A stretch of DNA of 38,453 bases from Dehalococcoidia bacterium. Its GTDB lineage: Bacteria > Chloroflexota > Dehalococcoidia > GIF9 > AB-539-J10. Location: positions 1 to 38,453 of the forward strand of contig SOHS01000110.1 of NCBI GenBank assembly GCA_004377135.1. Direction: 5' to 3'. This document shows positions 5,019 to 34,197 of the stretch, piece after piece. The translations under genes were made by a program, and so were the position numbers. Under the pieces are notes generated by a model. It made no database searches. It was not told the DNA's origin and worked only from the letters and a program-made list of their open reading frames with translations. How positions within the stretch are numbered: the first letter of the stretch is position 1; the number at the start of each line of letters is the position of its first letter.

Positions 5019-5651
5019 TCACCTCGAATAATATGCAACAATAGCTTGCTGACTAAATCCAGCTTCAATGTCGTCCTTGCCAGGCAAATTTAACACTTTA
5101 CCTGTCATGCTTTCTTTGTCCAAGCTTAACCAATTAGGGATAATTTTTCCCTCAACTTCCTCAGCTACTCTCTTATAATATTCCGTTTTTTTACTAGCTT
5201 CTCGCCATTTTATAACATCTCCGGACTTCACCAGACAGGAAGGAATATCTGTTTTGCGATCATTGATATTTATATGGCCATGCCCAACTATTTGCCTGGC
5301 TTGAGCACGTGAGTCCGCAAAGCCCAAGCGATATACTACATTATCCAATCTCCGCTCCAGCAATATGAGCAGGTTTTCTCCAGTGGCGCTGGGGCTTTTT
5401 TTCGCCTCGGCAAAAAACCTGCGAAATTGTCGCTCCAGGACACCATAGCTAAAGCGCACCTTTTGCTTTTCGCGCAATTGGAGTCCCCGGTCGGAAATCC
5501 CTCTGCGCCTTCGAGTTGTAGGACGCCCGCCGGGAGGAGTATTCCTCTTCTCTACAGGACATTTAGGTGTAGAGCACCTCTCGCCTTTGAGCATCAGCTT
5601 GTCTCCTAAACGGCGACATAGACGACAAGACGGGCCTGTGTAGCGCGCCAT
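5019..5651 (-). CDS. rpsD: 30S ribosomal protein S4
   Basis: Starts [14 protein letters not shown] at the internal ATG (5651), which is preceded by GGAGG. The 12-codon upstream extension in the ORF track would overlap rpsK. Confidence 0.9.
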
Positions 5652-5652
5652 T

Positions 5653-6036
5653 TTATACTCTTCGCCTCCCTTTCGGACGACAGCCATTATGGGGGATAGG
5701 AGTCACGTCTCTGATAGCTGTAACAGTAATTCCGGAGGCCTGTAAGGCACGAATAGCTGCTTCTCTTCCACTACCAGGGCCTTTAATATACACCTCAACT
5801 CGGCGCAAGCCATCACCCATTGCGCGATGTGCTGCATCTCTGGCAGCTATTTGGGCAGCGTAAGGGGTTCCTTTCCTGGAACCCTTGAATCCCGCGCTAC
5901 CAGAACTCCCCCAGGCGACAACGTTACCTTCCATATCAGTAATGGTAACGGTCGTGTTATTGAAAGTAGACTGGATGTAAGCTTTACCCTCGCTAACCTT
6001 TTTATGAGTTTTACGAGCCCTTTTCTTTTTCGGCAT
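5653..6036 (-). CDS. rpsK: 30S ribosomal protein S11
   Basis: 127 aa. Contains [16 protein letters not shown] and [13 protein letters not shown]. Confidence 0.95.
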
Positions 6037-9641: not shown

Positions 9642-10085
9642 CTAAGCCTGTTTTACCTTCCCTCCAGCAGCGAGGATTTTTTTCTCCGCTGATGAAGAGA
9701 ATTTGTTAGCACTAATTAGCAATGGATGCTGGATATCGCCAGCGCCGAGAATTTTAGTCGGATGGTCCGTGGTATTAATCAGCCCCGCTCGAAGCAATTC
9801 CTTAGGGGTTACCTCACTTCCCGGGGGGAAAACGGCTAGTTTTCCTACATTGACAACATTATATTCAGTTTTAAAAATGTTAGTGAAACCCCTTTTCCGT
9901 GGCAGTCGTTTTATCAAAGGCAACTGCCCGCCTTCAAAGCCAGGGCGCACGCCACCACCGGCGCGAGCCTTTTGCCCTTTGCAACCTCGCCCTGAATAGG
10001 TGCCATGTCGGCTGCCATCTCCTCGACCTACGAGCTTTCTCTTGTGCTTAGCACCCTCAGGAGGCCGTAATTCATTCTGTTTCAT
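9642..10085 (-). CDS. rplO: 50S ribosomal protein L15
   Basis: 147 aa. Contains GRGDGSRHGTYSGRGCKGQKARAGG. Confidence 0.95.
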   Translation of the reverse strand: MKQNELRPPEGAKHKRKLVGRGDGSRHGTYSGRGCKGQKARAGGGVRPGFEGGQLPLIKRLPRKRGFTNIFKTEYNVVNVGKLAVFPPGSEVTPKELLRAGLINTTDHPTKILGAGDIQHPLLISANKFSSSAEKKILAAGGKVKQA

Positions 10086-10632
10086 CTACCTTTACTTCCT
10101 GAGCTTCCCCAACACTCATATCTGTAAGTGCTTGGTGAAACGCCGCTTCTTCACCTTTCCTCAAGTTAGCCAGGGCAAGTATCGTCGCCTTAGCTACGTT
10201 TATTTTGCTTGGTCCACCTAATGATTTGCCAAGGGCGTCTTTTATGCCTGCCAATTCAAGCACTGCTCGAGTAGTATTGTTGACAATTAAGCCTGTGCCA
10301 GGCGCCGCTGGCTTCAGTAAGATTTTGGATGCACCGAACTTGGCTAGAATTTCATGAGGAATGGTATTGTCCTTGATAGGGACCTCAATCAGCCCCCTCC
10401 TCGCCATAGCACCTGCCTTGCGAACTGCTTCGGGAACCGCTGCCGCTTTAGCCAAACCAAATCCGACATGCCCTTGGCCATCACCAACTACCACTGATGC
10501 TCTGAACCGAAGGTGTCTACCACCTTTGACCACTTTAGTTACACGGTCAATGCCTAACAGTTTCTCTTCGAGACTCAGTTCCGAGGCATCGATTTTGGCC
10601 TTCTTCCCTCTTACTTTGGTAACCGCTTTCAT
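10072..10632 (-). CDS. rpsE: 30S ribosomal protein S5
   Basis: 186 aa. Contains [22 protein letters not shown]. The 3' end overlaps rplO by 14 nt. Confidence 0.95.
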
Positions 10633-10642
10633 AAGCTAACTC

Positions 10643-11017
10643 TCAAAATTCTAATCCAGCTTTCCTGGCAGCCTCGGCTAAAGCCTTAACCCTGCCGTGA
10701 TACTTATAGCCACCACGATCAAAAACCACCTGTTTGATCCCTTTATTTAATGCTCTCTCCGCAAGTAAAGTTCCTACTTCCACAGCCTTCTTGGTTTTCA
10801 CCATTCCATTGGTTTTGCCTCTCATCTGAGAGTCAAGAGTGCTCATTGAGACCAAAGTCTGGCCCCTAGAATCATCAATAAGCTGGGCATGGATATGATT
10901 CAAGCTGCGGAAGACACATAATCGAGGACGTGATATTGTTCCCGTTACTTTTTGCCTCACCCTTCTGTGTCGTATCCTTCTTGTTTCCTTTGAATCTCTT
11001 TCGTTCATTACAGCCAC
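10643..11017 (-). CDS. rplR: 50S ribosomal protein L18
   Basis: 124 aa. Contains [18 protein letters not shown] and [20 protein letters not shown]. Confidence 0.95.
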
Positions 11018-11565
11018 TATTTCTTGCCTATTTTGCCCGCTTTGCCAGGTTTAAGACGTAGCTCTTCATCAAAGTATTTAATGCCTTTCCCTTTATAGGA
11101 GTCAGCAGGGCGTATCGCCCGAATTCTAGCAGCTGTTTCTCCAACTACTTCTTTATCAATACCAGTGACGCGAATACGATTTGCCCCTTCAACACTAATA
11201 CTAATACCAGGAGGGGGGGGGAACTCCACAGCATTGGCATATCCCACTTGGAACAACAGCTTGTCGCCAGTTTTTTGCGCCTTGTAGCCCACGCCATTTA
11301 TTTCCAAGACTTTTTCAAAACCTTTGTTCACCCCTGTAACCATATTTGCCAGAAGACTACGAGTGAGCCCATGTAAAGAACGATGAAGTTTACTATCACT
11401 GGGGCGGGTTACAATCAAGCACTCATCCTTCAAAGTGATAGAAATGTCAGGGTGAAACCGTCGCCGGAGTTCTCCCTTACTTCCTTTTACCATAACTTCG
11501 CTTCCCTCAATATTTACCTCGGTACTTTGAGGTATATCAATGGGAAGCAAGCCAATACGAGACAT
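11017..11565 (-). CDS. rplF: 50S ribosomal protein L6
   Basis: 182 aa, starting [12 protein letters not shown], with [12 protein letters not shown]. Confidence 0.95.
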
Positions 11566-11587
11566 AATTCACTGCTCCTGAGTTAAT

Positions 11588-11983
11588 TTACCACACATAG
11601 CATAGAATTTCACCGCCAAGACGCTGCCGCCATGCCTCCTGGCCAGTCATAATACCTTTGGATGTGGATAGAATGGCTATGCCCAAGCCCCCATAAACAC
11701 GGGGGATTTCACGCCTTTCCGCATAGATTCTTAAGCTCGGCTTGCTCGCCCTTTCTAACCCTAAGATTGCAGGCTGGTCACCTGTGTACTTGAGGTAGAT
11801 TTTTATCATTGTCTGCGGTTTACCTTTAAGCACTTCATAACGGTCAATAAAACCCTCTTCATTAAGTATTTTGGCGATAGAAAGCTTTATTTTGGAGGAG
11901 GGCACAAGCACACTCTCGTGGCTTGCCATGATAGCGTTGCGTATCCTGGTCAACATATCAGCGATAGGGTCAATAATTGTCAT
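11588..11983 (-). CDS. rpsH: 30S ribosomal protein S8
   Basis: 131 aa. Contains [13 protein letters not shown] and ends GGEILCYVW. Confidence 0.95.
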
Positions 11984-11989
11984 TTTTCT

Positions 11990-12175
11990 CTACCAGCTTG
12001 ACTTCCTTATCCCGGGGATTACACCAGTTACAGCAAGCTCTCGGAAACAAATACGGCACAAGCCAAATTTACGCATATAAGCACGCGGCCTGCCGCATAA
12101 TTGACAACGATTACGTTGCTGCACCTTATACTTTGGTGTCCGTTTTGACTGCACAATCTTAGATAACTTCGCCAT
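11990..12175 (-). CDS. rpsN: 30S ribosomal protein S14, zinc-binding type Z
   Basis: 61 aa with CQLCGR...CRIC zinc-ribbon cysteines. Confidence 0.95.
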
Positions 12176-12176
12176 A

Positions 12177-12728
12177 TCAAGTTCTCCTGAAAGGCATGCC
12201 CATTAGCTCCAACAAAGTCCTGGCTTCATCATCGTTCTCGGCTGTAGTAACAATGGTTACCTCGAGGCCGCGAATTTTGTCTACTTTATCGTAATCAATC
12301 TCAGGGAAACCTATCTGTTCTTTCATGCCCAGGCTGTAGTTTCCTCGACCATCGAACGAATCCCGTGATACTCCGCGGAAATCTCGAAACCTCGGTAGAA
12401 CAACATTAACCAGCTTGTCAAAAAAATCGTACATCCGCTTACCTCGCAAAGTCACCATCATCCCAATAGGCATACCAGCCCGTAGTTTGAAAGAGGAGAT
12501 AGACCTTTTTGCCCGTGTCGTCACCGGATGTTGCCCTGAAATTGTAGTTAGGTCCTTCTCCGCTGCTTCAAGAGCTTTAGGCTCCTGTGTTGCTTCGCCC
12601 AAACCAATGCTAAGTACAATCTTTCTCAACCTGGGCAATCCCATTACATTGTCATAGCCTAGCCTAGCTTTAAGTTGAGGAGCTAATTCAGCTAAATATT
12701 TTTCCTCCAGGCGAGATTTCATAACCAA
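12177..12728 (-). CDS. rplE: 50S ribosomal protein L5
   Basis: 183 aa. Contains the [25 protein letters not shown] block. Confidence 0.95.
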
Positions 12729-27856: not shown

Positions 27857-28252
27857 TTAGGTGGGCAATGCTATAGTTGCCCTTCCTGATTGCACTTTTT
27901 CTTTGCCTTTGTCAAAAACCTCTAACTCCAGAATTAACATACTCATTTTGCCCCGAGTTATTTTTTGTAACACTCCTATGTAACACTCTATAGTAGCTCC
28001 AATTGGCACCATTTTGAAAAACTCTAATTCTTGTGAGGCATGTATAGCAATAGTGTCAGGTGGCAGTGGAATAGACTTTGTCGTAGCAGCTATGGTGCAG
28101 GCTGTAATAGCCAAAGGAGGGACAAATCCATCACCTTCACTATCTACAGCTTTTAGATATTTGGAAACGAAGGAGTCACTCAGTTCATAGGTAGTAGGAG
28201 GGAATTTGTAACCGGGTGTTAGCTCTTCATAGCTTATAGCTCTGTCCGGCAT
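27857..28252 (-). CDS. hotdog-fold protein lacking the hydratase motif (HadA/HadC-like partner subunit)
   Basis: 131 aa. First gene of the operon, 7 nt upstream of the catalytic MaoC gene. No D-x-N-P-x-H motif. Confidence 0.6.
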   Translation of the reverse strand: MPDRAISYEELTPGYKFPPTTYELSDSFVSKYLKAVDSEGDGFVPPLAITACTIAATTKSIPLPPDTIAIHASQELEFFKMVPIGATIECYIGVLQKITRGKMSMLILELEVFDKGKEKVQSGRATIALPT

Positions 28253-28292
28253 TCGACTAGTTCCTGATACATCGGTATGCTATGCATATTAC

Positions 28293-28320
28293 ATTATACA
28301 CTGCCCCTGATTATTGTCAA
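28293..28320 (-). promoter_or_regulatory. promoter of the fab/plsX operon (TTGACA-N16-TATAAT)
   Basis: Minus strand reads TTGACA ATAATCAGGGGCAGTG TATAAT, about 40 nt upstream of the first hotdog gene. Confidence 0.5.
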
Positions 28321-28496
28321 TATTTTCCTATTATTACCACCACCCATTAATAATGGACTTTTGGCATCGACAGAATTGACTTAAAATCAACCTGTCCCAC
28401 ACAGAATACCCTAAATTGCTGGAAGGTATAAGACGGAAAAAGCTATCGAGCACACTTTGCTAGCTGCACCGTCTTCCCATTTGGTTTACTGCAAAA

Positions 28497-28568
28497 TGGG
28501 CTCGGCAGGATTCGAACCTGCGACCAACCGGTTATGAGCCGGCCGCTCTGCCACTGAGCTACGAGCCC
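28497..28568 (-). tRNA. tRNA with CAU anticodon (elongator Met or lysidine-modified Ile2), CCA not encoded
   Basis: Reverse complement reads GGGCTCGTAGCTCAGTGGCAGAGCGGCCGGCTCATAACCGGTTGGTCGCAGGTTCGAATCCTGCCGAGCCCA. Clean cloverleaf. It is not initiator-like because the anticodon stem has no 3xGC. Confidence 0.85.
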
Positions 28569-28617
28569 ACTCTTCTACCCATGAAAAGCTTCACCTTTCA
28601 TGGTAACCAATATTGTG

Positions 28618-28695
28618 TGGAGCAGGAAACGGGACTCGAACCCTCGACACCTTACCTGGAAAGAGTAGTTATGACTGAGCCCTCGTTTTCCTCAC
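28618..28695 (-). pseudogene. degenerate tRNA-Gly(UCC)-derived sequence
   Basis: The 3' 33 nt (GTGTCGAGGGTTCGAGTCCCGTTTCCTGCTCCA) match the fragment at 37517-37549 at 30 of 33 positions by eye. The acceptor helix is partly retained (GTGAGGA / TTCCTGC), but the T stem has an A-G mismatch and the D and anticodon stems cannot form. Confidence 0.6.
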
Positions 28696-29252
28696 CTTTT
28701 AAACGTGACAAGCGGTAGAGGACTGCCTCTTTCCATTACTAATCAGGTGAGTGTTCATTCTCTATCTCCCGCCACTTCCTTGACTGATTTTACCATGCTT
28801 GCCCATAAGGCAACAACCGGTTTGGTAAGGACAAGAGACACTTCTTAGAGTTACCATAGTCTCTTTACAGTCAAAAGGATACGAATACTTGGCCTATTGC
28901 CCATCGAACAAAAGAGGTTTTATTGTGTTTGAAATCTAGCTAGAATATCGTCTCCCCTAGCCAGCTGAGCGCATTTCAAGTTCGCTAGAACTGACAGGCG
29001 CCAGGGGATTCGGAATTAAGTCATACAGAGGGGATAGCCCACGCAAATCTGTACTTGAGAATATTAAGCTGCGCTCAACTTTGCTACCTTGGCTAAACAA
29101 TTGTTCCTTTGACCTCACTAGTCCAAAGTTGTAGACTGTCAATATCTTCTTAACCGGAACTTAAATAGGTACACAGCCAAGGCCAGATTACAATGTGGAC
29201 AAAGGCTTGAAAGAGCACTTTGGTTCATGCCTCGAGACAGAAGTGAAGGAAA

Positions 29253-30452
29253 ATGAGAATAGAAAGCACCAGATACACTGAATGTCTTGGCTCAGTTCGG
29301 ATTAACGATGTACAGCAGGTATTGGAACTGGACTCTGGCAGAGCCAAAGAACTTCCCCCCCAAGAGAATATCGCTGTGCAAAAAATTGAGGAGGATGTTA
29401 TCAAGGACTTCGAAGAGAAAATGGCTATTGTCATCCCTACTAAGGACGAGAAACTCAAGCTCTTCGAAGGTGTTGTCAGTGGAGTCCCTCATGAGTGCCT
29501 GCTAATCGTAGTCTCTAACAGCCAGAGAAGGCGGGTTGACCGGTTCAGGATGGAGAAAGACGCATTGAACCAGTTCTGTCACTTTACTCGCCGTGAGGCT
29601 CTGATTATTCACCAGAAAGACCCCGTACTAGCCCGGGCTCTCGCTGAGGCTGGCTACACTGACATTTTAGGAGAGGATGGGTTGATAAGGGATGGCAAGG
29701 CTGAAGGCATGCTAGCTGCAATCCTTCTCGCTATGGTTGCCAAGAAAGATTTTGTTGGCTTTATCGATGCTGATAATTATTTTCCCGGCGCTGTATGGGA
29801 GTACGCCAGATGCTATGCTACCGGCTTCTGCATGGCTAAATCCGCTTATAGCATGGTCAGGGTTTTGTGGCGCTACAAGCCTAAAATTTCGGCAGGCATG
29901 TTTTTTAAGAGATGGGGTCGAGTATCAGAGATAACTAACAGGTGTATGAACTCCCTGATCTCAAGCAAAACCGGATTTGAAACTGAGATTATCAAGACAG
30001 GCAATGCCGGGGAGCATGCTATGAGCTTGAGACTGGCAGAGATACTCACTTATGCCTCAGGCTACGCTGTGGAACCTCAGGAACTTATATCTATCTTCGA
30101 AGGGTTTGGTGGTGTCTTACCCATGGCAAACCCTACCGCTGCCAAACATGGCGTTGAGATATTCCAGACCGAGACAAGGAACCCCCATCTCCATGAAGAA
30201 AGGGGTGGGCGGCATCTTCTGGTGGAAATGCTATTGCCAGGTCTGGGGTCTATCTATCACTCCCCACTCTGTGAAAAGGAGACCAAGCAGTTAATTATCA
30301 ACGAGCTTTTACAGCAGAATGCCATCCAGCCAGATGAAGAACCACCAAAACCACGCCTTATTACTCCACTGAGGGCTATCAACCTGAAGAAGTTCACCGC
30401 AGTTATGACGGAACACATGAACTCGTATTCAGCATTAGAGGAAGAGGAATGA
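29253..30452 (+). CDS. mpgS: mannosyl-3-phosphoglycerate synthase (GT55)
   Basis: 399 aa, collinear with archaeal MPGS as remembered. Blocks: MAIVIPTKDEKL, IIHQKDP, GFIDADNYFPGAV, WGRVSEITN, GNAGEHAM, ETRNPHLHEE, EEPPKP. Confidence 0.88.
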   Translation: MRIESTRYTECLGSVRINDVQQVLELDSGRAKELPPQENIAVQKIEEDVIKDFEEKMAIVIPTKDEKLKLFEGVVSGVPHECLLIVVSNSQRRRVDRFRMEKDALNQFCHFTRREALIIHQKDPVLARALAEAGYTDILGEDGLIRDGKAEGMLAAILLAMVAKKDFVGFIDADNYFPGAVWEYARCYATGFCMAKSAYSMVRVLWRYKPKISAGMFFKRWGRVSEITNRCMNSLISSKTGFETEIIKTGNAGEHAMSLRLAEILTYASGYAVEPQELISIFEGFGGVLPMANPTAAKHGVEIFQTETRNPHLHEERGGRHLLVEMLLPGLGSIYHSPLCEKETKQLIINELLQQNAIQPDEEPPKPRLITPLRAINLKKFTAVMTEHMNSYSALEEEE

Positions 30453-31543
30453 AAGCGGTCGTTCTTATCGGTGGGGAAGGGACGAGGCTACGTCCACTAA
30501 CCTTCAATACCCCCAAGGCGATTATGCCTATCCTGAACCGTCCTTTCTTGGAGCACTTGCTGGGCTACTTGAAAGAGCACGGAGTTGCCGACGCTATTCT
30601 CGCCATGGGTTATCTCCCTGACCCAATCCAAAGCTGTTTAGGCGATGGTACTCAACTCGGAGTTCGGCTCACCTACCTGGTGGAGGAGTCGCCTCTGGGC
30701 ACAGCCGGAGCAGTGAAGAATGCTGAATCATACCTGGATGGGCCATTCTTTGTTTTCAACGGAGACATTATCACCGGGATAGACTTGACTGCTATGATGA
30801 AACGCCACAAAGAAGTTAAGCCCAAAGTTAGCATAGCACTGACACCGGTAGATAATCCTACTATATACGGGGTAGTGGAGACTGATACCCGGGGCATGGT
30901 ACAGCGCTTTGTTGAGAAGCCGACCTGGGACAAGGTCACCACTAACATGATAAACGCCGGCATCTACATCCTGGAGCCTGAGGTCTTAGCACATATCCCA
31001 GCATCAACTCCGTCTATGTTTGAGAATTATCTCTTTCCGAGACTTCTTGAGATAGGTGAGCCTATCTTGGGCTATCCTTCTGACGCCTATTGGATTGATA
31101 TCGGTACGCCGGAGAAATATCTAAAGGCAAACCATGACTTGCTTTTACAGCAGGCTGGTAGAGGCATTCAAGCTAAAGGAAAGAGTCAGTTCCATCCTAC
31201 TGCCCAAATTGAGGGGCCGGTTTTGATTGCCGAAGGATGTATTATTGCTGAGGACGCCAAGCTAAAAGGGCCCGTCGTTCTAGGGCCGCATTGTGAAATT
31301 GGCAAAGGCGCAGTAGTGCAAGGAGCGGTACTGTGGCACCACTCGAGAGTGGGTGAGAAAGCAATACTCAGGAATTGCGTAGTTTGCTCCCATAGCTATG
31401 TGGAACAAGGCAGCCATGTTCCCGATAACTGCGTACTGGGCGATAGTGTTACAGTTGCTTCAGGAAACATATTGGATAAAGGTACCCAGGTCTGGCCGGA
31501 TGGCTATGCTGAGTCAAATGCAACTCAACCCTTAGTATCATGA
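30449..31543 (+). CDS. mannose-1-phosphate guanylyltransferase (NDP-sugar pyrophosphorylase with C-terminal left-handed beta-helix)
   Basis: 364 aa. N-terminal GGEGTRLRPLT signature. Its ATG overlaps the mpgS TGA (ATGA). Confidence 0.8.
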   Translation: MKAVVLIGGEGTRLRPLTFNTPKAIMPILNRPFLEHLLGYLKEHGVADAILAMGYLPDPIQSCLGDGTQLGVRLTYLVEESPLGTAGAVKNAESYLDGPFFVFNGDIITGIDLTAMMKRHKEVKPKVSIALTPVDNPTIYGVVETDTRGMVQRFVEKPTWDKVTTNMINAGIYILEPEVLAHIPASTPSMFENYLFPRLLEIGEPILGYPSDAYWIDIGTPEKYLKANHDLLLQQAGRGIQAKGKSQFHPTAQIEGPVLIAEGCIIAEDAKLKGPVVLGPHCEIGKGAVVQGAVLWHHSRVGEKAILRNCVVCSHSYVEQGSHVPDNCVLGDSVTVASGNILDKGTQVWPDGYAESNATQPLVS

Positions 31544-31643
31544 TTTGGCTAACCCCCGCTTTAAATCTGATAGTCAGCAAACACACCAACTTAATCAATG
31601 TTCTGGATTCGACCCCTAAAGCCAGAAAGGAATTTGAGTTTAT

Positions 31644-33335
31644 ATGTGCCCTATTTGTGGTATTGTAAGTCGGAATGATGAAGATGTGAGCAGCCAGATA
31701 CACTCTCCGATGAGTACACTGTGTAGCAATAGTTCTGCCGAGGCCTGGCTTGTTTCCGAGGGAGTGTCATACAGATGGCCAATGGATGCTCAGGCAATAA
31801 GAAGACAGGCCCTGGGGCAGGTCTCGTTTGCCACCAGGGAACAAGGCTCAGTAAGGCCTGGCTTTAATCACAACGGCAATTTATCCGTGCTTTGTGAGGG
31901 TAATCTCTATAATAGTGAGAATCTAAGATTGAGCCTCGCCTCGAAGCAGAAACCAGCTAGCGGAAGTACAGCCGAGATAGTAGCTTACTTGCTGTCAGAA
32001 AGATATCAGGGAGACCTGGTTGATGCACTAAAACAGGTGTCGCCCATGCTCGATGGCGAATTCTGTCTGGCAGCAAGTGATGGGAAGCAAGTTGTGCTCA
32101 CGAGGGATTTTGCCGGCCTCAGGCCGGCATGCTATGCCGAAAACAACAAAATTTTTGCCTTTGCCTCAAGGAAGACGGCTCTATGGGAGATAGGGCTGCG
32201 TAATGTAAGACCCCTGCGAGCAGGAATGATTGCTTCTTTTGGCAAAGATGGCATTATTCTTGATAAAGCCTACCCATTGAGCAAGATGAATATTCAAGTG
32301 ACCATCACCGACCTGGCTGAAGCTGTTGACAGCTACTGCGCCCTGCTTAAGGCGGCTGTTGAGAGGAGATTATACAATGTTAAAAGAGTAGCAGCGCTCG
32401 TTTCAGGAGGTGTAGACAGTTGCCTGATAGCTAAGCTTGTCTCAGACATGTCCGCAATGAGGGGCATTGAGGTAACCACTTATACTGCTGGCGTAGAGGG
32501 GGCGACTGATATTGAATATGCCAAACGCTTTGCTCAAGAGCTGGGGCTAAAGCATAAGGTGAGGAGGCTGAGCCAGGATGAGATTGAGTCATACATACCC
32601 CGAGTAGCTGCTGCTGTTGAGGAGAGGGACTTTGTACAAATTGAAGCCGGTATCGGAGTCTATGCCGCGGTGGAGATGGCAAGCCAAGATGGTCTCAAGG
32701 TAATCTTCTCAGGTCAGGGTCCAGATGAGCTATGGGGAGGCTACAGCTGGTATCCTCAAGTTATTGCCAAAGATGGCTATGACAGTCTTCTGCAGAATAT
32801 GTGGGGTGATTTAGAGAGAGCCGACGTGGAGACCTTTGACAGGGAGAACCGAATTGCTATGGCACACGGGGTGGAAAAGGTGTTCCCTTACGTTGATATT
32901 AATGTAGTCAAGCTGGCAATGAGCGTGTCGCCTCACCTCAAGATTACCTCTACTGAAGACAGGATTGGCAAGCGTCCCCATCGGGAGGCAGCCAAAAGGC
33001 TTGGACTACCTGCGCAATATGCTGACCGAAGTAAAGAAGCAGCCCAGCATGGTACAGGAATTCATGGTACCCTTGACGCAATAGCACGCAAGAATGGCTT
33101 TACTCCTGAGTTAGTGGAGCATGTTGGGTATGCTAGTGATAAAGTGAGCCAGGAAAAGTTAGCCAGTTCCACCCGTTACGGCTACCTATATGCAGAAAAG
33201 GAGCTCTGGCAGATACCCCAGCACATTCAGTTCTTCTTTGACTCGGTAGCGTACAGGAGTAACCTGCTCAATGAAGCGGAAAGGTCAAGGATAGAGCAAT
33301 TTCTAAAGAAGGCAAGTATTTGTTTAAACCAATGA
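31644..33335 (+). CDS. asparagine-synthetase-family (AsnB-like) ATP-dependent amidotransferase, atypical glutaminase domain
   Basis: 563 aa. N-terminus MCPICGIV, then EGNLYN and LTRDFAGLRP blocks. PP-loop AALVSGGVDSC. C-terminal SKEAAQHGTGIHG. Confidence 0.75.
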   Translation: MCPICGIVSRNDEDVSSQIHSPMSTLCSNSSAEAWLVSEGVSYRWPMDAQAIRRQALGQVSFATREQGSVRPGFNHNGNLSVLCEGNLYNSENLRLSLASKQKPASGSTAEIVAYLLSERYQGDLVDALKQVSPMLDGEFCLAASDGKQVVLTRDFAGLRPACYAENNKIFAFASRKTALWEIGLRNVRPLRAGMIASFGKDGIILDKAYPLSKMNIQVTITDLAEAVDSYCALLKAAVERRLYNVKRVAALVSGGVDSCLIAKLVSDMSAMRGIEVTTYTAGVEGATDIEYAKRFAQELGLKHKVRRLSQDEIESYIPRVAAAVEERDFVQIEAGIGVYAAVEMASQDGLKVIFSGQGPDELWGGYSWYPQVIAKDGYDSLLQNMWGDLERADVETFDRENRIAMAHGVEKVFPYVDINVVKLAMSVSPHLKITSTEDRIGKRPHREAAKRLGLPAQYADRSKEAAQHGTGIHGTLDAIARKNGFTPELVEHVGYASDKVSQEKLASSTRYGYLYAEKELWQIPQHIQFFFDSVAYRSNLLNEAERSRIEQFLKKASICLNQ

Positions 33336-33375
33336 ATGATGCCAAGCTGGGATTCGTTCATGGGCAGGGTTAAGA

Positions 33376-34197
33376 TTGATGAAGTTGAAACCAGTTATTT
33401 TCACCGACTTAGATGGTACTTTGCTAGACCTGGAAACTTACTCTTATGAAAGAGCTTTGCCATCCATAGAGTATTTACGAAGCCAGGAGGTACCTATTAT
33501 CTTCTGCTCGGCCAAGACCAGAGCTGAGCAAGAGGTATATCGAAAAGAGTTGCAGATAAACGACCCATTCATTGTGGAAAATGGAGGGGCGGTCTTCATT
33601 TCTCAAGGCTATTTCCCGTTTGATTTTGAGTATCATAAAGCTAAGGATAGTTACCAGGTAATTGAACTCGGCATCCCCTATCACCGAATCAGAGAGATTT
33701 TGGTACAGATAAGGGATGATACCGGGGTCAATTTTAGAGGTTTTGGTGATATGAGTGCGGAGGAAGTAGCATCATTGACGAACTTGGATCTCGGAGCCGC
33801 ACAGCGAGCCAAAGCCAAAGAGTATGACGAAACCCTTAATCTTCAGGGAATACCGGACGAGATTAATAGAGTGCTAAATGCGATAAGGAAAATGGGCCTC
33901 AATTATACATCTGGCAGCCGCTATTGTGACGTCACCGGTCCAAATGACAAAGGAAAGGCAACAAGAATCCTCATTGACTTATTCAACAGAAAATCAGGAC
34001 AAATAAAGACAATAGCCATAGGTGATAGCCCTAATGACTTGCCTATGCTCTCAGCAGTGGACATCCCCGTCTTGGTACAAAAGCCGGGAGGGACTTGGGA
34101 AGAGATAGATATACCTCATCTCCACAGGGTGGAGGGGATTGGCCCGGAGGGCTGGGCAAGGGCTGTTGAGGAAATAATCGAACAGGGAATGGCCTAG
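33376..34197 (+). CDS. mpgP: mannosyl-3-phosphoglycerate phosphatase (HAD-IIB, YedP-like)
   Basis: 273 aa. HAD motif I FTDLDGTLL and motif IV GDSPNDLPML. Context with mpgS. Confidence 0.8.
   Translation: MMKLKPVIFTDLDGTLLDLETYSYERALPSIEYLRSQEVPIIFCSAKTRAEQEVYRKELQINDPFIVENGGAVFISQGYFPFDFEYHKAKDSYQVIELGIPYHRIREILVQIRDDTGVNFRGFGDMSAEEVASLTNLDLGAAQRAKAKEYDETLNLQGIPDEINRVLNAIRKMGLNYTSGSRYCDVTGPNDKGKATRILIDLFNRKSGQIKTIAIGDSPNDLPMLSAVDIPVLVQKPGGTWEEIDIPHLHRVEGIGPEGWARAVEEIIEQGMA

Follow-up and report, generated by a model that had tools for sequence, protein, structure and literature searches.

Enzymes with the fold of AsnB adenylate a carboxylate and pass ammonia to it, and the carboxylates of the mannosylglycerate (MG) pathway are those of 3-phosphoglycerate, mannosyl-3-phosphoglycerate (MPG) and MG itself. 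From the work of Empadinhas, Santos and da Costa, the classical mpgS-mpgP operons of organisms in which MG has been measured are not known to contain an AsnB-like gene. The amide of MG, mannosylglyceramide, was reportedly described in Rhodothermus marinus in 1999. Under salt stress, this organism prefers the amide over MG (PMC1224877). For a different osmolyte, AsnO/PA3459 amidates the terminal carboxylate of the precursor N-acetylglutaminylglutamine (NAGG), and it is encoded within the operon for the resulting amide (NAGGN), under the control of an adjacent MarR repressor (PMC8070244). In the present study, we analysed a stretch of 38,453 nt from a Dehalococcoidia bacterium (assembly GCA_004377135.1, contig SOHS01000110.1; hereafter the window), in which an AsnB-like gene is embedded in an MG module. 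From the sequence comparisons presented below it seems fairly probable to us that this enzyme and the clade to which it belongs work in the MG pathway and not in asparagine synthesis, by amidating the glycerate carboxylate of MG or MPG.

The AsnB-like open reading frame (ORF; 563 aa, ATG start, positions 31644..33335 on the plus strand) matches Pfam Asn_synthase (2.3e-47) and GATase_7 (1.2e-12). It begins 100 nt after the gene of a sugar-1-phosphate nucleotidyltransferase that resembles GDP-mannose pyrophosphorylase (GMPP; 364 aa, 30449..31543, plus strand; Pfam NTP_transferase 2.4e-49) and ends 40 nt before mpgP, the gene of the MPG phosphatase (273 aa, 33376..34197, plus strand; TIGR02461 275.4 bits, cut-off 244.35; Pfam Hydrolase_3). 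Coordinates, spacers and Pfam domains agree with an earlier note on this DNA, which had placed an ORF of AsnB architecture between these two genes of an MG module. The module opens with mpgS, encoding MPG synthase (399 aa, 29253..30452, plus strand; Pfam Osmo_MPGsynth 4.6e-152; TIGR02460 521.6 bits, cut-off 351.2), which the nucleotidyltransferase gene overlaps by 4 bp. MpgS and MpgP are hence encoded in one adjacent module on the same strand and both exceed the curated equivalog cut-offs, as expected for the two-step MG pathway. The best NCBIfam match of the nucleotidyltransferase is mannose-1-phosphate guanylyltransferase, with 292 bits below the cut-off of 440, and a GMPP-like gene is found in only some of the related clusters (loci L003 and L005). 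The latter locus, from a Dehalococcoidia metagenome-assembled genome (MAG), represents the nearest genome relative and shows the same four-gene order at 92% protein identity.

The window protein has the two-domain architecture of AsnB, with an N-terminal class-II amidotransferase domain of the N-terminal nucleophile (Ntn) type and a C-terminal PP-loop synthetase domain. It stays below the cut-offs of TIGR01536 (193.5 versus 267.1 bits), PRK09431 (182.2 versus 499 bits) and the NAGGN amidotransferase family TIGR03104 (121.5 versus 570.1 bits). Membership in the NAGGN amidotransferase, XrtA/PEP-CTERM amidotransferase, lasso-peptide cyclase and macrolactam cyclase families was rejected, as all scores lie far below the respective cut-offs. 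When aligned to E. coli AsnB (taken from NC_000913), the ATP site is found to be intact: the ATP pyrophosphatase motif SGGVDS of the PP-loop (32403..32420, plus strand; aa 254-259) is invariant in every group compared, Asp351, Glu352, Lys429 and Lys449 are likewise conserved in all groups, and Tyr357 and Arg387 are also kept. The residues Thr322/323, Arg325, Glu348, Lys376 and Asp384 of the E. coli enzyme belong to the site for aspartate and beta-aspartyl-AMP, and Arg325, Glu348, Lys376 and Asp384 are implicated in the formation of the latter. In the corresponding region of the window protein (32634..32729, plus strand), V-Q-I-E (aa 331-334) stands for T-T-I-R and SGQGPDE (aa 356-362) for SGEGSDE; in place of Thr323, Arg325, Glu348, Lys376 and Asp384 it has Gln, Glu, Gln, Asp and Thr, respectively, and Thr322 has given way to Val. 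With scores below the curated AsnB cut-offs and five AsnB residues replaced, the protein is not a canonical asparagine synthetase, in line with the view of the earlier note that a plain housekeeping enzyme is not at hand.

A further peculiarity is the C-terminal tail (aa ~480-563; 33081..33335, plus strand), which carries the aromatic motif SSxRYGYxY...W (aa 508-522) and in which S508, R511, Y512, G513 and W522 are invariant among 74 clade sequences. The tail is missing in the ~480-aa outgroup described below and cannot be aligned in E. coli AsnB. In an AF2 model built on the 74 clade sequences (pLDDT 90, pTM 0.91), it forms helices, mostly with pLDDT values of 72-94. The top PDB matches of this model in Foldseek are E. 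coli AsnB (1ct9) and human ASNS (6gq3), with TM scores of 0.74-0.83 at 18-20% identity (1ct9, the best match, has 0.74/0.83 and 20%), followed by beta-lactam synthetase, TsnB9 and carbapenam synthetase. The acidic residues in place of Arg325 and Lys376, together with the aromatic tail motif, would be better suited to a polyhydroxylated substrate than to an amino acid, which is suggestive only.

When 1.8 billion representatives were searched exhaustively with HMMER, a graded series of relatives emerged. All of the 150 best matches have Gln at the position of Glu348, and nearly all have Asp at that of Lys376; since both exchanges are nearly universal in this set, they mark a large, mostly archaeal and uncharacterised AsnB subfamily. 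Inside this subfamily, a clade of ~560-aa proteins stands apart in a neighbour-joining tree computed for the proteins of 80 genome loci, and it is distinguished by Thr323 to Gln and Arg325 to Glu (both in all clade members), by Thr, Cys or Ser instead of Asp384 and by the tail motif. The outgroup, proteins of about 480 aa from methanogens, Thermococci and Bathyarchaeia, lacks these marks and has Lys/Asn and Gly/Ala at the first two positions. Within the clade, the tree separates a Dehalococcoidia group that includes the window protein, a Dehalococcoidia sister paralogue, Archaeoglobaceae, a large bacterial group and Nitrososphaerales, and one MAG carries both Dehalococcoidia copies (L008 and L012). 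The profile search and the tree, both of a kind that had been proposed in the earlier note, place the gene in a distinct clade.

Gene neighbourhoods were assessed by tblastn with the MpgS, GMPP and MpgP proteins of the window, and later with more cluster genes, against all fetched loci, to which the called-gene tables of five further contigs and of Ca. Nitrososphaera gargensis were added. The clade gene adjoins mpgS, mpgP or the gene of an archaeal phosphatase in 43 of the 54 assessable loci, compared with none of the 21 loci of the sister paralogue and the outgroup (Fisher p = 6e-11, with phylogeny not corrected for). Co-occurrence with mpgS and mpgP in other genomes, the central sequence-based check put forward in the earlier note, is hence seen in two domains of life. 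Linked bacterial hosts belong to the Dehalococcoidia, Fidelibacterota, Verrucomicrobiota, Ignavibacteria, Latescibacteria and Krumholzibacteriia and include a 'Deltaproteobacteria' MAG; linked archaeal hosts are Archaeoglobus and Nitrososphaerales, including Ca. N. gargensis.

Several gene orders were encountered (X being the clade gene). In Dehalococcoidia, they are mpgS-GMPP-X-mpgP, mpgS-X-mpgP, GH38-mpgS-X-mpgP and, at locus L001, mpgS-X alone; Nitrososphaerales have mpgS-(SerB-like HAD)-X, sometimes with mpgS inverted, and this mpgS-HAD-X cluster is also present in the cultured strain Ca. N. gargensis Ga9.2. In other bacteria the order is MarR-X-mpgS-(SSF symporter)-mpgP with an overlap of 1-4 bp between X and mpgS, and in Archaeoglobus X is divergent from mpgS-mpgP-manC. 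Co-encoding with the genes for the putative substrate, of the type known from AsnO, is thus seen in 43 of 54 loci and in at least five gene orders; since these orders differ across lineages, we argue that proximity has been selected for and does not merely reflect inherited synteny. From our point of view, the Fisher test is a weaker argument than the diversity of gene orders seen in both domains. At locus L001 (6836-9701) of a relative with 73% identity, the AsnB-like gene begins about 35 nt before mpgS ends and is followed by rpsR, with neither GMPP nor mpgP nearby. This layout shows that the mpgS-X pair outlasts the loss or the move of the other module genes.

The N-terminal domain (about aa 1-205; 31644..32258, plus strand) requires a more differentiated view. 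The sequence EGNLYN (aa 85-90, nt 31896-31913), the STAE block (as GSTAE, aa 107-111, nt 31962-31976), SGGVDS and the N-terminus MCPICGIV with an ATT codon before its second Cys were all found where the earlier note had placed them. The conclusion it drew from the N-terminus, namely that this speaks against a plain housekeeping asparagine synthetase, did not stand: MCPICGIV aligns without gaps to MCSIFGVF of E. coli AsnB and to MCGIAGIV of the orthologues, and Cys2 consequently occupies the canonical nucleophile position. The register is normal, there is no insertion and an ATT start is needless; such a start, or a propeptide of three residues, was ruled out by the colinearity with E. coli AsnB and with the MCGIAG of the orthologues.

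The glutamine site of this domain is indeed degenerate. Of the AsnB glutaminase residues (Cys1, Arg49, Asn74-Gly75 and Asp98), the window protein has Cys2, Ala/Ser, Glu-Gly and Thr; in the alignment, the window lineage shows Ala/Ser, Glu, Asn and Thr opposite Arg49, Asn74, Glu76 and Asp98 of E. coli. Position 2 is occupied by Cys in 88 of 111 close homologues and by Ser in the other 23, and a new Cys5 is present in 110. The domain nevertheless remains under purifying selection in the Dehalococcoidia branch, with dN/dS values of 0.15-0.27 against six relatives (C-domain 0.07-0.19), by which pseudogenisation was ruled out. The canonical set of Cys1, Arg49, Asn74, Gly75, Glu76 and Asp98 is found in the orthologues of Nitrososphaerales, Archaeoglobus and other bacteria; in fact, all clade members outside the two Dehalococcoidia groups have it, together with the MCGIAG N-terminus, and so does locus L022, which stems from a Dehalococcoidia MAG. 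The degeneration is therefore lineage-specific and not a property of the clade. While the earlier note was right about the non-canonical glutaminase of the window protein, this feature cannot serve to set the clade apart from AsnB; the clade differs from asparagine synthetase by its synthetase domain and its C-terminal tail and not by the glutaminase.

For the substrate, the product and the nitrogen source of the clade enzyme, we infer the following scheme. The PP-loop synthetase domain would adenylate the carboxylate that is free on the glycerate moiety of MG or MPG, ammonia would attack the acyl-adenylate, and neutral mannosylglyceramide would be formed either directly or after dephosphorylation by MpgP. 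Most clade members would obtain the ammonia from glutamine by means of their intact N-terminal glutaminase. In the Dehalococcoidia branch, including the window, where the site has degenerated, free NH3/NH4+, most likely free ammonia, or a partner would have to take over this role. The idea of MG amidation had already been put forward in the earlier note; the comparative linkage speaks for it, the arguments from the N-terminus and the glutaminase have fallen away, and the function itself is a prediction from sequence.

Several observations weigh against this scheme. The linkage counts derive from an incomplete sample, as the genome scan covered the first 600 candidate stretches, and 11 of the 54 assessable clade loci have no MG genes within reach. 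Two loci from MAGs of Ignavibacteria and Zixibacteria, L043 (9267-12579) and L085 (6314-9572), have the arrangement MarR-X-CN_hydrolase with no mpgS within 10 kb, and the MG model offers no explanation for this repeated pairing of amide synthetase and CN_hydrolase. The exchanges of Glu348 for Gln and of Lys376 for Asp also occur in the large, mostly archaeal subfamily and would on their own give no pointer to a sugar-acid substrate. In addition, the nitrogen donor in the window lineage has to be accounted for, as the degenerate site apparently leaves this lineage without a glutaminase pocket. Finally, mannosylglyceramide is on record only from R. marinus.

Some of these points could also be taken to mean that the gene encodes a true asparagine synthetase from a divergent lineage of archaeal type, which converts Asp to Asn and is located next to MG genes by chance or due to co-regulation under osmotic or nitrogen stress. 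We consider this unlikely. The AsnB fold and the top structural matches would agree with it, as would the clade members without mpgS nearby; orthologues whose glutaminase is intact score above the TIGR01536 cut-off (P0127 with 312 bits, P0131 with 348 bits), and databases label clade proteins as "asparagine synthase (glutamine-hydrolysing)". Both these scores and the nitrogen-assimilation context of the Dehalococcoidia sister paralogue, which sits beside genes for glutamate dehydrogenase and a glutamate-synthase-like protein and is compatible with amino-acid amidation, have to be set against our proposal. However, Arg325, Lys376, Asp384 and Glu348 are all replaced, two of them with charge reversal, and the same genomes or lineages have a second gene of the AsnB type (at L086, a second Asn_synthase gene lies 7 kb away). 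A linkage of 43/54 versus 0/21 in at least five gene orders, with stop/start overlaps, is furthermore hard to square with a housekeeping gene. For ammonia-oxidising archaea, a published reconstruction (Abby et al. 2020, PMC7554672, Table S3) places the gain of MPG synthase (FAM006285) in their last common ancestor and its loss at node CARA; a 'putative asparagine synthase' (FAM007479, no arCOG) appears and disappears at exactly these nodes, with one loss more (PMC7554672). This family presumably corresponds to the present clade, and its joint loss with MPG synthase would be difficult to reconcile with a role in asparagine synthesis, since asparagine is still required. Another asparagine-synthase family, arCOG00071, is ancestral in these archaea (PMC7554672). 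Genome papers on ammonia-oxidising archaea note the MPG synthase, and the neighbouring AsnB-like gene is mentioned in none of them.

A related possibility is that MG or MPG is adenylated and then joined to another nucleophile, such as an amine or an amino acid, or that the Dehalococcoidia protein does not amidate at all and has a cyclising or regulatory role. The degenerate Dehalococcoidia glutaminase, whose domain is yet held at a dN/dS of 0.15-0.27 and displays the new Cys5 and the E-G-N block, could be understood in this way, and beta-lactam synthetase, CarA and the hydroxyamidotransferase TsnB9 are among the fold matches. We nonetheless find it improbable: the orthologues of all other lineages have a canonical glutaminase, which points to ammonia transfer as the ancestral chemistry, and no gene that would supply another amine is conserved in the clusters. 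Moreover, E. coli AsnB is able to use free NH3, so that the loss of the glutaminase alone does not call for new chemistry. It is very unlikely, in our opinion, that an unrelated carboxylate, for example of a cell-envelope glycan or some other metabolite, is amidated and that the MG neighbourhood reflects no more than a common need for GDP-mannose or common regulation. Carboxylates of many kinds are amidated by AsnB-like enzymes, and the Nitrososphaera loci L028 and L062, which have no mpgS, still show a manC-like gene downstream, both of which would be in line with such a role; but the clade gene has its conserved partners in mpgS and the MPG phosphatase and not in GDP-mannose genes or glycan glycosyltransferases, and the bacterial and archaeal hosts have unrelated envelopes.

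If amidation of MG or MPG is accepted as the working model, the clade would be the first concrete candidate for an enzyme that makes mannosylglyceramide. In the literature searched, neither an enzyme nor a gene for the synthesis of this amide was found, just as the earlier note had assumed, and no paper linking MG to an amidotransferase was found there either. A metabolic model of R. marinus from 2024 includes MG and not the amide (PMC11730185). Two asparagine synthases are annotated in R. marinus DSM 4252, of which RMAR_RS11910 is absent from strain ISCaR-493 (PMC11730185, Table 3), and a strain-variable gene of this kind is noteworthy in the sole known producer of mannosylglyceramide. The search for an R. 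marinus orthologue returned MAG proteins only among the best 120 matches of a profile search with bacterial orthologues, and ordinary asnB only, at <=26% identity, in a tblastn of plasmids.

The genes that accompany the clade gene in other genomes are of interest in themselves. Bacterial MarR-X-mpgS clusters often include a divergent GH38 alpha-mannosidase gene, with or without a C69/C45-like Ntn hydrolase. GH38 genes were located within the following stretches: L056 (6680-10628), L086 (2198-6098), L088 (932-6160), L087 (11146-13677), L089 (3730-6231) and L007 (5848-8421); their best NCBIfam match is mannosylglycerate hydrolase, with scores far below the cut-off. At L056, L086 and L088, GH38 is co-oriented with the C69/C45-like Ntn hydrolase, and L088 has a glycerate 2-kinase in addition. 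Together, these three enzymes look like a catabolic arm leading from the amide to MG and on to mannose and glycerate. Candidate amide hydrolases near clade genes are these C69/C45-like Ntn hydrolases (L056, L086, L088) and a CN_hydrolase at L003. At the latter locus (10544-12402), which stems from a Dehalococcoidia relative, mpgP is directly followed by the CN_hydrolase and then by a gene of the enolase superfamily (MR_MLE); the best family match of this CN_hydrolase is the glutaminase domain of NAD+ synthase, and a gene of this kind is absent from the window. At L022 (2-373), MR_MLE is likewise encoded, ahead of the AsnB-like gene.

In most bacterial clusters, a sodium:solute symporter of the SSF family (~545 aa) is encoded between mpgS and mpgP (L025, L026, L040, L056, L061, L086 at 9976-11610, L087 and L088), which may serve solute re-uptake. 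The clusters of ammonia-oxidising archaea have no MpgP orthologue. Instead, a SerB-like HAD-IB phosphatase of 213-216 aa is encoded between mpgS and the AsnB-like gene, as at L023 (9218-9859), at L090 of Ca. N. gargensis (5253-5903) and at some 17 further loci of Nitrososphaerales, and this protein is a candidate for a non-orthologous MPG phosphatase.

The Dehalococcoidia sister paralogue, with 44-51% identity to the AsnB-like gene and a likewise degenerate glutaminase site, is located away from MG genes. It closes a conserved run that begins with the gene of glutamate dehydrogenase and continues with those of a glutamate-synthase FMN-domain protein (528 aa) and a DAO-type FAD oxidoreductase (370 aa), as seen at L011 (1015-6982), L015 (5788-11695), L021 (6774-11533), L012, L013, L014, L016 and L017, often with a CN_hydrolase a few kb away. 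It may be a nitrogen-assimilation or asparagine enzyme of this lineage.

In the window itself, the MG module (29253-34197) lies on the plus strand, and nearly all large ORFs of positions 1-28252 lie on the minus strand; the sign of the GC skew flips at ~29 kb, which coincides with this strand switch. From gene sizes alone, the minus-strand ORFs upstream are taken to be genes for ribosomal proteins, EF-G, SecY and fatty-acid synthesis, with those starting at 28252 taken to belong to fatty-acid synthesis. The 1 kb 5' of mpgS (28253-29252) has no sizeable ORF and holds a tRNA-Met(CAT) gene on the minus strand (28496-28569) as well as a sigma-70-like promoter match (12/12; minus strand, 28320-28293) that faces the minus-strand genes starting at 28252. 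An Rfam scan of the window detected three tRNAs only and no riboswitch near the operon, and scans of the window for promoters and terminators found no enrichment compared with shuffled sequence.

Should the proposed function prove correct, the predicted solute of mpgS-positive soil nitrifiers and of many uncultured phyla would change, and models of osmoadaptation would have to allow for the exchange of a charged solute for a neutral one. An enzyme for the biotechnological production of a neutral MG analogue would become available, and a systematic misannotation as "asparagine synthase (glutamine-hydrolysing)" could be corrected. As Ca. N. gargensis is a cultivable host of the cluster, the question of function is directly testable. 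One could go further and speculate that the ~560-aa clade is the missing MG amidotransferase, that the amide is made by Nitrososphaerales, Archaeoglobus, Dehalococcoidia and many uncultured bacterial phyla, and that the Dehalococcoidia branch has dropped glutamine hydrolysis and keeps a remodelled N-domain, which would imply either another nitrogen supply or a new MG derivative; we put this forward as a tentative yet realistic possibility.

Overall, the enzyme superfamily concerned is known, and what is new is the proposed MG-linked functional variant within it. With AsnB (1ct9) and human ASNS (6gq3), the window protein shares the two-domain fold, the PP-loop SGGxDS and the residues Asp351, Glu352, Tyr357, Arg387, Lys429 and Lys449; it differs from AsnB in its low identity of 18-20%, its scores below the HMM cut-offs, the replaced substrate-site residues, the aromatic-rich tail and the mpgS operon context. 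Beta-lactam synthetase (beta-LS) and carbapenam synthetase (CarA) keep an N-domain without glutaminase activity, and the Dehalococcoidia branch appears to do the same. These two enzymes and TsnB9 resemble the clade in having the same fold and, as proposed here for the clade, in adenylating a carboxylate that is not aspartate. In contrast to it, they are encoded in clusters for antibiotics or secondary metabolites and cyclise their substrates or transfer hydroxylamine, whereas the clade is found in a compatible-solute operon and most of its members have a canonical glutaminase. The present module resembles the classical two-step MG operons of Pyrococcus, Thermus and Dehalococcoides (mpgS-mpgP, with or without genes for mannose activation) in that its MpgS and MpgP exceed the equivalog cut-offs, and it is the extra AsnB-like gene that defines the present variant. 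The closest functional precedent for MG amidation, by analogy, would be AsnO/PA3459 of Sinorhizobium and Pseudomonas, an AsnB-family amidotransferase of the NAGGN solute operon with a MarR regulator and a hydrolase in its cluster (PMC8070244). The bacterial clade clusters, with the order MarR-X-mpgS-(SSF)-mpgP and hydrolases nearby, are built in a similar manner. Nevertheless, the two belong to different families, as indicated by the low TIGR03104 score, and while AsnO acts on a dipeptide, the proposed substrate of the clade is a glycosylated hydroxy-acid, which the window protein would have to amidate without a working glutamine pocket.

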